From the NCBI RefSeq assembly GCF_016026235.1, contig NZ_CP065613.1: a stretch of 64,000 nt of DNA; one strand, 5' to 3'. Shown in pieces: positions 29,013-37,236 of this stretch. Under the pieces are notes generated by a model that did not search any database, was not told where the DNA came from, and saw only the letters and a list, made by a program, of their open reading frames with translations. Positions within the stretch are counted from its first letter, which is position 1; each line of letters starts with the position of its first letter. This stretch comes from Escherichia coli. Lineage in GTDB: Bacteria; Pseudomonadota; Gammaproteobacteria; Enterobacterales; Enterobacteriaceae. The position numbers and the translations under genes are program-made.

Positions 29013-29672
29013 ATGAGTGAATCCGCGTTTAAGGATTGCTTTTTAACGGATGTTTCAGCCGATACGCGGCTGTTTCATTTTTTAGCGCGTGACTACATTG
29101 TGCAGGAAGGGCAACAGCCGTCCTGGCTGTTTTACCTGACGCGAGGCCGCGCCAGGCTTTACGCCACGCTAGCTAATGGTCGCGTGTCGCTGATCGATTT
29201 CTTTGCCGCCCCCTGTTTTATTGGTGAGATTGAGTTAATCGATAAAGACCATGAACCGCGTGCGGTACAGGCTATTGAAGAGTGTTGGTGCCTTGCGCTC
29301 CCTATGAAACATTACCGTCCGCTGTTATTAAACGACACCCTATTTTTACGAAAACTTTGCGTCACCTTAAGTCATAAAAATTATCGTAATATTGTTTCTT
29401 TAACTCAGAATCAATCATTTCCGTTAGTGAATCGCCTGGCAGCATTTATATTACTCTCACAAGAAGGTGATCTTTATCACGAAAAGCATACGCAAGCGGC
29501 AGAGTATTTAGGCGTTTCTTATCGACATCTTTTATATGTTCTCGCGCAATTCATTCACGACGGTTTATTAATTAAAAGCAAGAAAGGATATCTAATTAAA
29601 AACAGAAAGCAGTTGTCAGGGCTGGCGCTGGAGATGGACCCGGAGAATAAATTCTCCGGGATGATGCAGTAA
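29013..29672 (+). CDS. yeiL: CRP/FNR-family transcriptional regulator YeiL
   Basis: ORF 28974..29672 (GTG); conserved start [11 protein letters not shown] at ATG 29013; cNMP-binding-like domain plus C-terminal HTH. Confidence 0.85.
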
Positions 29673-29695
29673 AAATTATTTGCAATAGCGCGATT

Positions 29696-29732
29696 GCCGG
29701 ATACAACGCTTGATGCGTTTTATCCGGTCTAC
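29696..29732. repeat. REP-like palindrome downstream of psuT
   Basis: gccggatacaacgcttgatgcgttttatccggtctac between convergent yeiL and psuT. Confidence 0.55.
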
Positions 29733-29742
29733 AAATTGAGCA

Positions 29743-30993
29743 TTACGCCAGACCAATAAAGAACCCGGCAATGGTCGCGCTCATCAGGTTGGAAAGCGTT
29801 GCTGCTGCCAGCGCCCGTAAACCAAGCTGAGCGATTTCCGGTGCACGTTTTGGCGAAATAGCCGAAAATGCGCCAACGACAACACCGATAGAACCAAAGT
29901 TAGCAAAACCACAAAGCGCAAAGGAGATAATCGCAATGGTTTTCACTTCCAGCGTGCCGCCCGTTTGCAGGTATGGGGAGAAACTCAGGTAAGCGACGAA
30001 TTCGTTAATCGCCAGTTTCTGCCCAATCAGGCTACCCGCAAGGTTGGCATCACTCCAGTCCACACCCATGATCCACGCCAGCGGTGCCAGCACATAGCCA
30101 AAAATACTTTCCAGAGAAGCATTGGTAAAACCAAACCAACCGCCAATTCCGCCGATAATGCCATTAATCAGCGCAATAATTGCGACAAACGCCATTACCA
30201 CCGTCGCCACACCGGCGGCGATTTTCAACCCGGTCATCGCACCGCTCGCCGCCGCTTCGATAAAGCTTTTTGGCGGCGTTTCACTGAACGACAGATTTTC
30301 AAATGTGACCTGCGAAGGCTCGGTTGCCGGACTAAGAATACGTGCAAACAAAATACCGCCGGGGATCGCCATCAGCGATGCCGCCAACAGGTAGTCAATT
30401 GGTACGCCCATTCCGGCATAACCAATCATCATCGAACCCGCAATGGACGCCATCCCGCTACAAATTGCGGTAAACAACTCGTTGCGATTCATGCGATCGA
30501 TAAACGGTTTAACGATCGCCGGGATCTCATTTTGCCCGAGGAAAATAGTAGTAACCGCAACAAAAGATTCGATTTTGCTGATGTTGAGGGCTTTCTGGAA
30601 AATGCTGCCAAGGATGCGAATCAGCAGCCCCATCACGCCAATGTAGTACAGCAGACTGATGAGCGCAGTGACGAAGATAATCGCCGGGAGTACGCGAAAG
30701 GCGAAGATAAAGCCTGCGCCATCAAACAGGACATCCATTTTCGGCCCAACCAGCGAACCAAAAATGAAGGCGCTACCGGCATCACTGTAAGACATCACTT
30801 TATGAACACCTAATGCCGCCTGTTCTACTGCCCATTTTCCCGGCGGAAAATAGAGCATGATGCCACCAATAGCGATTTGCAGCAGCAGTGCGGCTCCAAC
30901 CGTGCGCAAACTGATGCTCTTTTTATTTACCGACAACAGAAATGCTATTGCCAGTAACACCACCATCCCCACAACACTTCTCATTATATCCAT
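29743..30993 (-). CDS. psuT: Putative pseudouridine transporter (CNT family)
   Basis: 416-aa ORF; paralog of nupX. Confidence 0.9.
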   Translation of the reverse strand: MDIMRSVVGMVVLLAIAFLLSVNKKSISLRTVGAALLLQIAIGGIMLYFPPGKWAVEQAALGVHKVMSYSDAGSAFIFGSLVGPKMDVLFDGAGFIFAFRVLPAIIFVTALISLLYYIGVMGLLIRILGSIFQKALNISKIESFVAVTTIFLGQNEIPAIVKPFIDRMNRNELFTAICSGMASIAGSMMIGYAGMGVPIDYLLAASLMAIPGGILFARILSPATEPSQVTFENLSFSETPPKSFIEAAASGAMTGLKIAAGVATVVMAFVAIIALINGIIGGIGGWFGFTNASLESIFGYVLAPLAWIMGVDWSDANLAGSLIGQKLAINEFVAYLSFSPYLQTGGTLEVKTIAIISFALCGFANFGSIGVVVGAFSAISPKRAPEIAQLGLRALAAATLSNLMSATIAGFFIGLA

Positions 30994-31086
30994 AATGATT
31001 TTCCCTTCATGCCAGTAAACCCGGCGTCAGCGCCAGGTTTCGGTATGTATGATCAGTACGGGCGACGGCTTTCTGCCCGTCAGAAA

Positions 31087-32021
31087 TTAACCCGCGAGAC
31101 GCTGATATTCTTTGGCAATTTCGCTCGCCAGAATGGCGTTGTTGAACACCAGCTGGATGTTGGATTTCAGGCTGTCACCGCCGGTCAGCTCAGCAACGCG
31201 CGCCAGCAGGAATGGCGTACTTTCTTTACCAATAACACCCTGCGCTTCAGCTTCAGCTACCGCCTGATCGCCGCATTGATAGTGTGTTCCGGCATAGCAA
31301 ACTGTTCCGGGATCGGGTTCGCTACCACGAGGCCACCGTTCAGCCCGCTTTGCCATTTCACCGCCATTGCACGGGCAATTTCGCTGGCGCTGTCGAGACG
31401 AATGCTGACGTCAAACGGGCTGGTACGGCAGAAAAACGCAGGCAGCGCTTTAGTCTGATAGCCAATTAACGGCACACCGAAGGTTTCTAAATACTCAGTG
31501 GTTAATCCTAAATCGAGAATAGATTTCGCCCCGGCACAAACAACGGTGACATTAGTATTTGCCAGTTCTTGCAAATCGGCAGAAATATCGAAGGTATGTT
31601 CCGCCCCGCGATGAACACCACCAATTCCCCCGGTGGCAAATACTTTAATTCCGGCAAGCGCCGCAATAATCATCGTTGAAGCCACAGTGGTTGCGCCATT
31701 TTTTCCGGCGGCAACAACAAAAGGTAAATCGCGACGACTAACTTTGGTCACGTTATGCCCTTCACGACCCAGTAATTCAATTTCTTCTTTGCTTAAACCC
31801 ACTTTCATCACGCCACCAATAATGGCGATAGTGGCAGGTACTGCGCCCTGTTTACGAATAGTTTCTTCAACTTCAATTGCGGTCTGGGCATTTTGTGGGA
31901 ACGGCATCCCGTGAGAAATAATGGTCGATTCCAGCGCCACAACCGGTTTTTTGTTTTTTAAAGCGTCCTGCACTTCCGGGGAAATTTGTAATAATTCAGG
32001 GGAAATTTTTAATTCAGACAT
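31087..32021 (-). pseudogene. psuG: Pseudouridine-5'-phosphate glycosidase with a disrupted reading frame
   Basis: N-terminal 252 residues in ORF 31257..32021 (ends ...PEHTINAAIRR*); conserved C-terminal 60 residues DQAVAEAEAQG...EYQRLAG are in another frame (ORF 31087..31356). Frames meet at plus 31261-31274 cgcctgatcgccgc. Confidence 0.75.
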
Positions 32022-32950
32022 TCTGCGTTCTCCACTAACGATATAACGTTGGCAATCGATAAATCGGGGTTATTGGTGTATTCACAGGAGAGCGCCATTG
32101 ACGAACATCCCTGTGCGAAACGAACAGATTCGGCAAACGGCATTCCGTCTACCCAACACGAAGCAAGTCCCGCCATCATGGCATCGCCCGCTCCGGTAAC
32201 ATTAATAACATTGGTTTTGATCGAGGCAGACCAGCCACTTTCACCGCTGATTTCACTGTAATAAACGCCATCGCCGCCCATGCTCAATACCAATCGGTTC
32301 AGGCCATGTTGATGGAACCAGGCAGCAACTTTTGCCACATCTTCACGCCCTGACAGCGCAATCCCACTCAGTGTTTCCGCTTCAAGGCGGTTTGGCTTGA
32401 GAGTATGGATTTGACTTAATCGCTCGCGTACTTTGACGCATTTCCACGCGGAAACCGGATCGACAAATACGGGTACGTTGGCAGCATTATCCAGAATCCA
32501 TGCCAGTGCCTCTTCACTGATATTACAGTCCGCGACAATGACCTTTGCCCTCTGAATAAATTCACGGTGCTGTGCGAGATATTCAGCTGTAATAGCGTTG
32601 CTAATATTCATGTCATTTATAGCAACCAGCATTTCACCAGTATTATCGAGTAATGATAAATAGCTCGACGTATTTTCTCCCGGCACAATCAGGCATTTAT
32701 CGACATAAACGCCAGATTGATTGGTTTGCGTTAGCAGCGATTGGCCATAAAAATCACTGCCTACGGCGCTCAGTAGCCAGGCTTTATTACCCAGCAACGC
32801 CAGGTTTTGTGCAATATTGCGCCCTACCCCACCAGGCGTAAATTTTATTTTACCTGGATTTGAATCCGCATAATTTAATGATTCATGTGAATATCCGGCG
32901 ACATCAATATTCGCCGAGCCTATAATTACGACATAATCCTTTTCGCGCAT
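32009..32950 (-). CDS. psuK: Pseudouridine kinase (PfkB family)
   Basis: 313-aa ORF MREKDYVVIIGSANIDVAGY... with GGVGRNIA motif; overlaps the psuG start by 13 nt. Confidence 0.9.
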   Translation of the reverse strand: MREKDYVVIIGSANIDVAGYSHESLNYADSNPGKIKFTPGGVGRNIAQNLALLGNKAWLLSAVGSDFYGQSLLTQTNQSGVYVDKCLIVPGENTSSYLSLLDNTGEMLVAINDMNISNAITAEYLAQHREFIQRAKVIVADCNISEEALAWILDNAANVPVFVDPVSAWKCVKVRERLSQIHTLKPNRLEAETLSGIALSGREDVAKVAAWFHQHGLNRLVLSMGGDGVYYSEISGESGWSASIKTNVINVTGAGDAMMAGLASCWVDGMPFAESVRFAQGCSSMALSCEYTNNPDLSIANVISLVENAECLN

Positions 32951-33017
32951 AGCACGTCCTCTGGTAAAAAATTACCAACCCTGTCAATCCACAAGAATAT
33001 AGATACTGCAAAGACGG

Positions 33018-33053
33018 TTTAAACATGTGTTCATATTTAAACATGTGCTCATA
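33018..33053. repeat. Tandem 18-bp direct repeat upstream of psuK
   Basis: tttaaacatgtgttcata (33018-33035) immediately repeated as tttaaacatgtgctcata (33036-33053), 17/18 identical; a third gcatgt follows at 33058-33063. Confidence 0.6.
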
Positions 33054-33190
33054 GTATGCATGTTTTACGTAAAGTAAATTGCCGCCAGAGAGGCAAAGCG
33101 GGCAGATTTGAGCAGGCTCACAAAATGCGATTAAATGCCAGAATTACAAAAGCGAGGAATTTGTGACGGGATGCACAGAACATGAACACT

Positions 33191-33216
33191 AAAAAAGGGC
33201 AGAAAAGAATCTGCCC
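33191..33216 (-). terminator. Rho-independent terminator, probably ending the fruBKA transcript
   Basis: Minus strand GGGCAGA-ttcttt-TCTGCCC followed by TTTTTT (plus-strand A tract 33191-33196), about 160 nt past the fruA stop. Confidence 0.55.
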
Positions 33217-33373
33217 TTGAGGAAATAACCTTAGTGTTTGATGAACGTTTCAGGTTTCTACTGAAAGATAAAACCATTTAAATTCATAAAATTACATTCA
33301 CAAACCGGTCATTCTCTTTGCGCTCATCCAATGATACAGGGCAGTAAATTTCTGCCCTGTAACACACCTTTTA

Positions 33374-35065
33374 TTACGCGGCTTTCGCTACTGCGTCCAC
33401 TTCCGGACGTTTCAGGAAGGCATAGGCCAAACCCGCCACCAGCGTACCGGCAATAATTGCTACCAGGTAACCCAGTACCGGCGTAATAGCGCCAGGGATC
33501 AGCAGAACAAACAGACCACCGTGCGGTGCCATCAGTTTCGCACCAATCGCCATTGAGATTGCGCCAGTCAGCGCCCCACCAACGATACAACACGGCAGCA
33601 CACGCATCGGATCACGAGCAGCAAACGGAATTGCACCTTCCGAAATAAAGCACAGACCAAGAACCAGAGCGGCTTTGCCACCTTCCTGCTGCGCTTTGTC
33701 AAATTTGCGACGCGCCACCATTGTTGCCAGACCCATTGCCAGCGGTGGCACCATACCTGCTGCCATAATCGCCGCCATCGGGCCATAGGTTTGAGTACTC
33801 AGCAGACCCACACCGAATGCGTACGCTGCTTTATTTACCGGACCGCCCATGTCAGTACACATCATGCCACCGAGGATCGCCCCCAGCAGAACCGCATTCG
33901 CAGTCCCCATGGTCTGCAGCCAGTGAGTCAACCCTTCGAGAATGCCAGCAACCGGTTTACCGATCAGGTAGATCATCGCCAGACCGACCACCAGACTGGA
34001 AATTAGCGGAATGATCAGGATCGGTTTCAGCGCCTCCATACTCTGTGGCAGTTTCAGTTGCGTACTGATTAACTTCGCAATGTAACCAGCCAGGAAGCCC
34101 GCAATAATACCGCCAATGAAGCCAGAACCGGTGCTGACCGCCAGCATACCGCCAATCAGACCCGGCGTGAGACCCGGACGATCGGCAATGGAGAAGGCAA
34201 TGTAACCTGCCAGTACCGGCACCATCAGCGCAAAGGCTGAACCACCACCAATCTGCATCAGCGCCGCTGCCAACGTACCCGGCTCTTTAAACGCTTCGAT
34301 ACCAAAAGCAAAAGAAAGCGCGATACACAGACCACCTGCAACGACCATCGGCAGCATGTAAGAGACGCCCGTCAGCAAGTGACGGTATGCGCCTGCACTC
34401 TCTTTCTTACCTTCAGAGGTCGCCGTTTGAGCTTTGCCCACCGGTTCATACGGCGTTGCTTCAGCAACCGCTTTATCCAGTTCCTGCGCGGTTTTCTTCA
34501 GCGCCAGACCGGTAGAGGTACGATACATCGGTTTACCAGCAAATTTTGCCAGATCCACTTCGATATCTGCCGCCACAATCACCAGATCCGCTGCGACTAC
34601 TTCTTCGGGAGTGATTGCATTACCCGCGCCAACAGAACCACGGGTTTCAACTTTCACCCACCAGCCACGTTTTTTCGCTTCGGTTTCAATGGCTTCAGCC
34701 GCCATAAAGGTGTGTGCTACGCCAGTCGGGCAAGCAGTCACCGCAACTACGCGTTTCGGACCGCTGGCGGCAACCGGTGCTGTCGCAGCGACCGGCGCAG
34801 TGTAAGGTTTCGCATGGCCTTTGGCTTCACTCAGGAACAGCTCAGGGTGCGCAACTGCCCGGGAAATATCGCCCAGCCAGACATTTTTACCGTTCAGCGC
34901 GCTGTCATTCGGGATGGAATCACCGAGAACAATCGCCATTTCTGCGTCGTTCGGATTGTCGATGATTTCCAGTTTTGCTTTTCGCGCCGCCGCGCCCAGC
35001 AGGGTCTTCGCCATATAGGCGCGTGCCTGACCGAGATTAGCGTCAATAATCAGCAGCGTTTTCAT
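33374..35065 (-). CDS. fruA: PTS fructose-specific EIIB'BC component
   Basis: 563-aa ORF MKTLLIIDANLGQARAYMAKTLL... with EIIB cysteine (VTACPTGVAHT) and a polytopic EIIC domain. Confidence 0.95.
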   Translation of the reverse strand: MKTLLIIDANLGQARAYMAKTLLGAAARKAKLEIIDNPNDAEMAIVLGDSIPNDSALNGKNVWLGDISRAVAHPELFLSEAKGHAKPYTAPVAATAPVAASGPKRVVAVTACPTGVAHTFMAAEAIETEAKKRGWWVKVETRGSVGAGNAITPEEVVAADLVIVAADIEVDLAKFAGKPMYRTSTGLALKKTAQELDKAVAEATPYEPVGKAQTATSEGKKESAGAYRHLLTGVSYMLPMVVAGGLCIALSFAFGIEAFKEPGTLAAALMQIGGGSAFALMVPVLAGYIAFSIADRPGLTPGLIGGMLAVSTGSGFIGGIIAGFLAGYIAKLISTQLKLPQSMEALKPILIIPLISSLVVGLAMIYLIGKPVAGILEGLTHWLQTMGTANAVLLGAILGGMMCTDMGGPVNKAAYAFGVGLLSTQTYGPMAAIMAAGMVPPLAMGLATMVARRKFDKAQQEGGKAALVLGLCFISEGAIPFAARDPMRVLPCCIVGGALTGAISMAIGAKLMAPHGGLFVLLIPGAITPVLGYLVAIIAGTLVAGLAYAFLKRPEVDAVAKAA

Positions 35066-37164: not shown

Positions 37165-37185
37165 GCTGAATTGAAACGATTCAGC
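37165..37185. promoter_or_regulatory. Cra (FruR)-like operator dyad close to the fruB start
   Basis: gctgaattgaaacgattcagc, a palindrome containing TGAAACGATTCAGC (Cra consensus GCTGAAtCGaTTCAGC-like). Confidence 0.45.
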
Positions 37186-37236
37186 TTCTATGAGAAAAAA
37201 AGCGCCAACCTGGCTTAGGGTTAAAGACAAGATCGC

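Follow-up and report, generated by a model that had tools for sequence, protein, structure and literature searches.

Two hairpins with the same GGGCAG/CTGCCC stem core follow one another between fruA and psuK in Escherichia coli, and the question raised by this arrangement is which of them ends the fruBKA transcript, what the other does, and how one 3' untranslated region came to hold both. The two genes (fruA, 33374-35065; psuK, 32009-32950; positions are those of the window, the whole 64-kb stretch of DNA analyzed here) lie on the minus strand, as do fruBK and the remainder of psuGT, and are separated by 423 nt, the counterpart of which in MG1655 is 2259297-2259718. The initial annotation had placed one hairpin at 33337-33359 and a second at 33197-33216, and both are present exactly there (Table 1); we call the hairpin proximal to fruA HP1 and the distal one HP2. 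Their spacing is 142 nt, and the pattern GGGCAG-N4-10-CTGCCC occurs twice in the window where 0.02 occurrences are expected, with two or more in none of 100 shuffled sequences.

HP1 reads ACAGGGCAG-AAATTTA-CTGCCCTGT on the transcribed (minus) strand, or (U)ACAGGGCAG-AAAUUUA-CUGCCCUGU(A) as RNA. Its core arms are UACAGGGCAG and CUGCCCUGUA, to which the full fold adds three outer pairs (RNAfold, -19.7 kcal/mol, z = -4.3 against shuffled controls); in K-12 the stem reaches 14 bp and -21.3 kcal/mol. It had been described as lying 15 nt past the fruA stop without a U-tract: the distance is in fact 13-14 nt, counted from the tandem UAAUAA, and the missing U-tract stands, the stem being followed by AUCAUUGG in the window and by UUGAUGAG in K-12, neither of which is a U-tract. 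The stop codons and the AAAA behind them form an A-rich stretch, TAATAAAA, read as UUUUAUUA on the plus strand and invariant in Escherichia carrying the A-type spacer described below (alignment columns 1-8). HP2 reads AAGGGCAGA-UUCUUU-UCUGCCCUU and then the remainder of a T6 run; the pairing GGGCAGA-UUCUUU-UCUGCCC lengthens by AA/UU to 33195-33218, giving 9 pairs, 5 of them G-C, around a 6-nt loop (-16.2 kcal/mol, z = -4.5 against shuffled controls). A consensus terminator scan found HP2 terminator-like and did not flag HP1. An Rfam scan of 32700-33600 with E-values up to 10 returned sub-threshold chance matches only, the best being DapZ on the non-transcribed strand (24.8 bits versus a threshold of 56). 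Open reading frames in the spacer were considered as coding and rejected: they comprise 7-9 aa, plus one of 48 aa (33131-33277) that extends over the terminator and has its frame shifted by a 1-nt indel in K-12, and none is conserved.

Table 1. Elements of the fruA 3' region in the window and the basis on which each was placed.
Feature	Position	Strand	Basis
Tandem fruA stop codons, TAA-TAA	33371..33376	-	ORF list, sequence
TTTT just past HP1	33369..33372	+	K-12 counterpart position 2259716 (window 33371) is a listed antisense-strand 3' terminus
HP1, proximal hairpin copy without U-tract	33331..33365 (core 33337-33359)	-	folding, conservation
A/U-rich non-coding spacer in fruA 3'UTR	33217..33336 (120 nt between cores)	-	sequence
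5' arm GAUGAGCG of long-range inverted repeat closing the spacer	33321..33328	-	MFE fold, consensus fold, alignments
3' arm CGUUCAUC of the same inverted repeat	33240..33247	-	MFE fold, consensus fold
HP2, stem-loop of the fruBKA intrinsic terminator	33197..33216	-	terminator scan, fold, orthologues, conservation
U6 tract of the HP2 terminator	33191..33196	-	sequence; K-12 RNA 3' end 2259536 = window 33191

HP2 is the operative intrinsic terminator of fruBKA, and the fruA 3'UTR is 186 nt long, ending there. The hairpin combines a GC-rich stem of at least 5 bp, a loop within the range of 3-8 nt and an adjacent U-tract, and published K-12 data place an in vivo 3' end within that U-tract. A minus-strand Term-seq end at MG1655 2259536 appears in Supplementary file 1 of Adams et al. 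2021 (PMC7815308; 28,730 reads, on the M63-glucose sheet only, labelled 'orphan'), and the sequence printed with it, ...CTCAAGGGCAGATTATTTTCTGCCCTTTTTT|ATTG, identifies this position as the last U of the HP2 U-run; the K-12 and window hairpins differ at a single loop base. RNAtag-seq/Term-seq tables of the TRS paper (PMC10687069) give an independent terminus at 2259530-2259540 (minus; dominant 2259534/5, signal 0.98-0.99), classed as 'Distant primary' for fruA, with a 186-nt 3'UTR and a hairpin of -17.2 kcal/mol, and record no transcription start near it. Adams et al. also report a Rho termination region at 2259533 (minus, score 3.5), which suggests that Rho handles read-through beyond HP2 toward psuK, or contributes to termination at this point. 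The initial annotation had suggested that the second hairpin may be the real terminator, proposed Term-seq mapping of the fruBKA 3' end as the check, and expected about 120 nt of non-coding RNA between the hairpins; the published end bears out the first, and the RNA is transcribed inside the 186-nt 3'UTR. The HP2 end is already contained in published high-throughput 3'-end maps; the 3'UTR and its terminator are without RefSeq annotation, and our literature search found no paper discussing the fruBKA terminator.

A further RNA 3' end in the same K-12 maps lies at the other extremity of the operon, in the fruB 5'UTR (window ~37170-37222, minus; K-12 2263539), 44 nt upstream of the start codon. 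It is strong in all three Term-seq conditions (218,000-431,000 reads on two LB sheets, 213,000 in M63 glucose), follows GCCAGGTTGGCGC and a T7 run between two palindromes resembling Cra operators, and has an intrinsic-terminator score of 9.6. This may possibly be a leader attenuator or the end of a short leader RNA.

The shared stem core is best understood from the same locus in other enterobacteria. We inspected the DNA after the stop codon at 80 enterobacterial fruA loci (one genome per species), 75 of them from outside Escherichia. A single GGGCAGAG-loop-CTCTGCCC hairpin with a T-run was found 12-44 nt past the stop in 39 of these 75, from at least 10 genera; carriers include Citrobacter, Klebsiella, some Enterobacter, Leclercia, Silvania, Pluralibacter, Atlantibacter, Pseudescherichia, one Buttiauxella and Salmonella diarizonae, and the typical form is AAGGGCAGAG-ATTT-CTCTGCCCTT followed by T5-8. 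Across these orthologues the GGGCAG/CTGCCC core is constant, the loops differ, and the two inner pairs show compensatory substitutions (AG/CT, GT/AC, CC/GG), which marks this as a conserved RNA hairpin, the ancestral fruBKA terminator. Where psuK comes after fruA, the interval from stop to start measures 278-328 nt in Citrobacter, Klebsiella, Enterobacter and Leclercia; in Escherichia it measures 411-423 nt for the A type and 455 nt for the B type, an excess of ~140 nt that matches the spacing between the two hairpins. HP1 stands at the ancestral distance from the stop, and the DNA downstream of HP2 is collinear with that following the Citrobacter terminator; the two E. albertii copies, GGGGCAGAGATATCTCTTCCCC and GGGCAGAGACATCTCTGCCC, hardly differ from one another or from the ancestral hairpin. 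Since there is one ancestral hairpin elsewhere and two copies in Escherichia, HP1 and HP2 are paralogues rather than members of a dispersed motif family. Their relatedness, as first noticed, is accordingly that of paralogous copies of the fruBKA terminator hairpin, and the genome-wide family suspected at the same time did not materialize: the 41 further copies found in 447 kb of fetched related loci are all orthologous fruA terminators, every one within 260 nt after a fruA stop, and there are none elsewhere in the window.

We hypothesize that a Rho-independent terminator hairpin originally occurred once, shortly after the fruA stop, and that a duplication or insertion of ~140 nt in the Escherichia ancestor set a second copy downstream. 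The distal copy, HP2, has retained the U-run and the ancestral 3' flank, and fruBKA transcripts end there; the proximal copy, HP1, has lost its U-run, with the consequence that RNA polymerase reads through it on the sense strand; Rho may further limit read-through past HP2 toward psuK. The HP1 stem would have been kept by selection, as a barrier to 3' exonucleases and/or as an end-forming hairpin for transcripts running in the opposite direction, for which it would use the A-rich stop region as read on the plus strand. An ancestral terminator would thereby have been turned into two oppositely facing halves. Taken as a whole, the reading of HP1 and HP2 as two copies of the ancestral terminator, with HP2 functional and HP1 devoid of a U-run and selected for its stem, is one that we hold to be quite probable. 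The arrangement may have arisen by tandem duplication followed by insertion, or by one event. Just after HP1, B-type genomes and E. albertii carry a sequence (GAUGAUGA) complementary to the ancestral 5' flank of HP1 (UCAUCAUC; compare CTCATCAAAGGGCAG in Citrobacter locus L010), and a second copy of this flank precedes HP2. The pattern suggests, speculatively, a palindrome-extending or template-switch event at the hairpin, to which a transposon with a short target duplication would seem a poorer fit.

The case for selection on HP1 comes from ten related Escherichia sequences, in which a single one of 14 columns varies in the HP1 core stem and one of 18 in the HP2 stem, against 57 of 117 in the spacer (Fisher p = 0.003 for HP1 versus spacer). 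The sole variable column of HP1 is a G-C to G-U change in K-12. Its loops vary, and the stem is lengthened by different flanking bases in each lineage (14 bp in K-12, 13 bp in the B type). The HP1 stem is as conserved as that of HP2, and we infer from the alignment that it is under selection. No sense-strand 3' end is found near HP1 (2259600-2259718, minus) among the entries listed from Term-seq by Adams et al. or from RNAtag-seq/Term-seq in the TRS tables, a negative that is limited by the poor expression of fruBKA without fructose, the operon being barely expressed in the conditions sampled. With neither a U-tract nor a mapped end, HP1 is not a standard sense-strand terminator. Our best guesses at its role are two: it may be an exonuclease barrier that shields the fruA coding region once the A/U-rich spacer has been cut, a role that predicts trimmed ends just 3' of HP1, of which there are none among the entries listed; or it may be an antisense-facing 3'-end element or terminator.

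A different view of HP1 is that it acts on the sense strand as a processing or pause element, as the initial annotation had suggested it might; in this reading transcripts would end or be trimmed at HP1, and HP2 would serve only as a back-up terminator. HP1 is indeed the more stable of the two hairpins (-19.7 to -21.3 kcal/mol) and has a conserved stem, the A/U-rich spacer behind it looks like a good RNase E substrate, and read coverage of the 3'UTR is 2-3 times that of the coding sequence (TRS, PMC10687069), as would fit separate fates of the two and may reflect a stable 3' fragment. However, HP1 has no U-tract, the interval 2259600-2259718 holds no sense 3' end among the Term-seq and RNAtag-seq entries listed, and it is the HP2 terminus that is classed as primary for fruA, at a signal of 0.98-0.99. 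Neither dataset thus lends this proposal support, and we regard it as unlikely.

In the opposite direction there is a reported end. TRS Supplementary Data 2 (PMC10687069) lists a plus-strand terminus at 2259711-2259721 (dominant 2259716, signal 0.92) as 'Antisense fruA'. It occurs in one re-analyzed dataset only, probably the Dar & Sorek Term-seq sheet to judge from the position of the row in the file, and the curated list of Adams et al. does not contain it. Position 2259716 falls 6 nt past the 14-bp stem of the K-12 HP1, inside ACCUUUUAUU, a U-rich tail that is the complement of the invariant stop region UAAUAAAA. The corresponding tail in the window is CACCUUUUAUU, in which the U-run begins 4 nt after the HP1 stem, a poor geometry for a terminator. 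A terminus here implies an uncharacterized transcript that runs antisense through the psuK promoter region and the fruA 3'UTR. A promoter-like GCGACA-17-TATAAT (10/12 matches) is present on the plus strand at 32898-32926, directed toward fruA from inside the first psuK codons; it is kept in K-12 and E. whittamii, but lies within coding sequence. It is the only candidate source of such a transcript that the sequence offers. It is tempting to speculate that the two hairpins form a two-part insulator, in which HP2 shields psuKGT from sense fruBKA transcription and HP1 with the A-rich stops ends an antisense transcript from near the psuK promoter, shielding fruA, and/or that the 186-nt 3'UTR yields a stable Hfq-associated regulatory fragment in sugar-PTS control; we consider this a doubtful proposition, with the odds well against it.

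The spacer between the hairpins exists in two forms. The A type, carried by the window, K-12 and ~78% of complete E. coli genomes, is A/U-rich and found at one place per genome (a single copy in 4,230 genomes, with no distant copies), and it has no homologue outside Escherichia among the 80 fetched enterobacterial fruA loci; a mobile or repeat origin was accordingly ruled out. An inverted repeat closes it (Table 1), the 3' arm of which resembles the ancestral 5' terminator flank (CTCATCAAAGGGCAG, Citrobacter L010), and the pair UUUGAUGA/UCAUCAAA is invariant in A-type Escherichia, while 49% of A-type spacer columns vary among the ten Escherichia sequences. Conserved structure across the whole 3'UTR was considered and rejected, the RNAalifold covariation term of +0.96 giving no support beyond the two hairpins and UUUGAUGA/UCAUCAAA. 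So was a Cra operator at 33243-33254 (minus): CTGAAACGTTCA matches the half-palindrome TGAAAC|G but reads TTCAAACGTTCA in K-12, so that the resemblance is probably due to chance. The B type (~1,195 of 5,426 E. coli genomes, ~22%; for example FDAARGOS_1298 and the type strain ATCC 11775) has a spacer that resembles E. albertii, with a BIME/REP pair in its middle that matches at least 40 places per genome; its HP1 has a 13-bp stem, UCAUCAUCGGGGC...GCCCCGAUGAUGA (-29.5 kcal/mol), and HP2 is kept with a T5 run.

Could the spacer together with HP2 be a functional sRNA that acts with Hfq, either derived from the 3'UTR or independently transcribed? The 3' end is classed as 'orphan' by Adams et al. 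(PMC7815308), 'fruA.psuK.IGR' appears among the nodes of Hfq RIL-seq data, 2259586-2259651 takes part in one Hfq-CLASH chimera, 3'UTR coverage exceeds that of the coding sequence, the A/U-rich RNA precedes a U6 terminator, and the 211-nt region folds with z = -5.3. Yet the RIL-seq-based sRNA probability is 0.001, the sole CLASH partner is a tRNA, no transcription start is recorded nearby, and a search for a conserved promoter gave none, the minus strand holding no sigma-70-like site from HP1 to HP2 and the candidate hexamers lacking conservation. Within Escherichia, variation affects half of the spacer columns, the covariation term offers no support, the fetched loci outside Escherichia do not contain the spacer, and Rfam has no match. 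That it is single-copy, poorly conserved and replaced by a BIME in ~22% of E. coli genomes argues against an sRNA, and we give a functional sRNA from this spacer very little chance. Least credible, to the point that we set it aside, is the idea that the hairpins are copies of a REP-like dispersed repeat or mobile element, or palindromes in the DNA to which a regulator binds. In its favor one may cite two similar palindromes 142 nt apart and the genuine BIME between them in the B-type allele. Against it stand the absence of the pattern from the rest of the 64-kb window and, in 447 kb of related loci, from everywhere but the fruA 3' region, the single copy of the A-type spacer in every E. coli genome that carries it, and the free variation of the loops with the stems kept, which points to a constraint on RNA or terminator function rather than to a protein site.

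The divergence of the spacer extends into the neighboring operon. From ~29600 to 33400 (compare locus L004, 2300-6000), psuKGT and the fruA-psuK spacer form two deeply diverged E. coli alleles: ~1,195 of 5,426 genomes share just 74-92% identity with the window over this stretch, and 98.6% on the fruBKA side, with a sharp breakpoint ~27 nt inside the 3' end of fruA. The resemblance of the minority allele to E. albertii suggests introgression or an old polymorphism. Two deletions, natural or laboratory, also end in the fruA-psuK spacer: in Escherichia sp. MOD1-EC7003 (L006, 3248-3380) the spacer is fused to mid-psuG with loss of HP2 and psuK, and ER1709 (L003, 4001-4060) is without most of the spacer, fruA, fruK and part of fruB. 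In the window strain psuG has a 4-nt deletion relative to K-12 at ~31265, which splits it into ORFs 31257-32021 and 31087-31356, and is probably a pseudogene; the closest genome match, FDAARGOS_943, has a psuG disrupted by IS5 and an internal stop in psuK. Upstream of psuK, 33021-33070 contains three AAACATG(T/C) half-sites, arranged as a direct repeat, AAACATGTG(T/C)TCATA, present twice, and an inverted copy. The half-sites are shared by the two alleles of E. coli and by other Escherichia species, and are likely an operator for a regulator of the psu operon. The region upstream of psuK also has a CRP/FNR-like site, TTTTGTGAGCCTGCTCAAATCTG (~33105-33125, minus), whose conservation reaches to Citrobacter (AAATTGTGATTCTGTTCATATCTG) and which might serve CRP or YeiL.

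The finding is an ordinary one; the likeness of the stems has its explanation in the evolution of a duplicated terminator, and the value of the result is mainly for annotation, since it puts the end of the fruBKA operon at HP2 instead of the first hairpin past the stop. The observation from which the analysis set out is confirmed, and the interpretation placed on it was partly right. In Escherichia a conserved enterobacterial terminator has come to be present twice; the U-tract is gone from one copy but its stem persists, and in E. coli the DNA separating the copies occurs as two alleles of deep divergence, one of them a BIME. The locus therefore provides a natural test case for the role of a U-less terminator hairpin in a 3'UTR, and for the remodelling of terminators by insertions.

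Compared with known systems, HP2 resembles canonical E. coli intrinsic terminators in its GC-rich stem of 7-9 bp, 6-nt loop and adjacent U6, in the 3' end within the U-run, and in its orthologues across enterobacterial genera. It differs in lying 186 nt past the stop rather than the typical ~20-40 nt, because an insertion bearing a second, U-less copy of the hairpin sits between. With 3'UTR-derived sRNAs such as CpxQ, SdhX, NarS and DapZ, the fruA 3'UTR shares its length, a U-rich terminator and weak Hfq-associated reads; unlike them it has no conserved seed, processing site or mapped 5' end, and 22% of strains do without its spacer. REP/BIME elements and other 3' stabilizer hairpins (e.g. the malE-malF REP) block 3'-5' exonucleases, and HP1 is likewise a stable, U-less stem-loop just past a stop codon, with a true BIME right after it in the B type. 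HP1 is, however, terminator-derived and single-copy, lacks the REP consensus, and has no trimmed 3' end mapped to it among the entries listed; HP1, HP2 and the A-type spacer are each found at one place per genome, which does not match the copy number of a REP or BIME. Bidirectional intrinsic terminators, described in SEnd-seq and Term-seq studies, consist of an A-tract, a hairpin and a U-tract. Several orthologues (e.g. L019, L026, L034, L041) have just this form, with A-runs before and T-runs after a single hairpin, and in Escherichia HP1 follows the A-rich stop region and has a reported plus-strand end, with the sense U-run at HP2. The two directions would here be divided, unlike in those terminators, between separate hairpin copies 142 nt apart, and the putative antisense function of HP1 depends on one dataset row and a suboptimal geometry. 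HP1, though not a member of the REP family, behaves most like a stabilizer hairpin of the REP kind or like one half of a bidirectional terminator.
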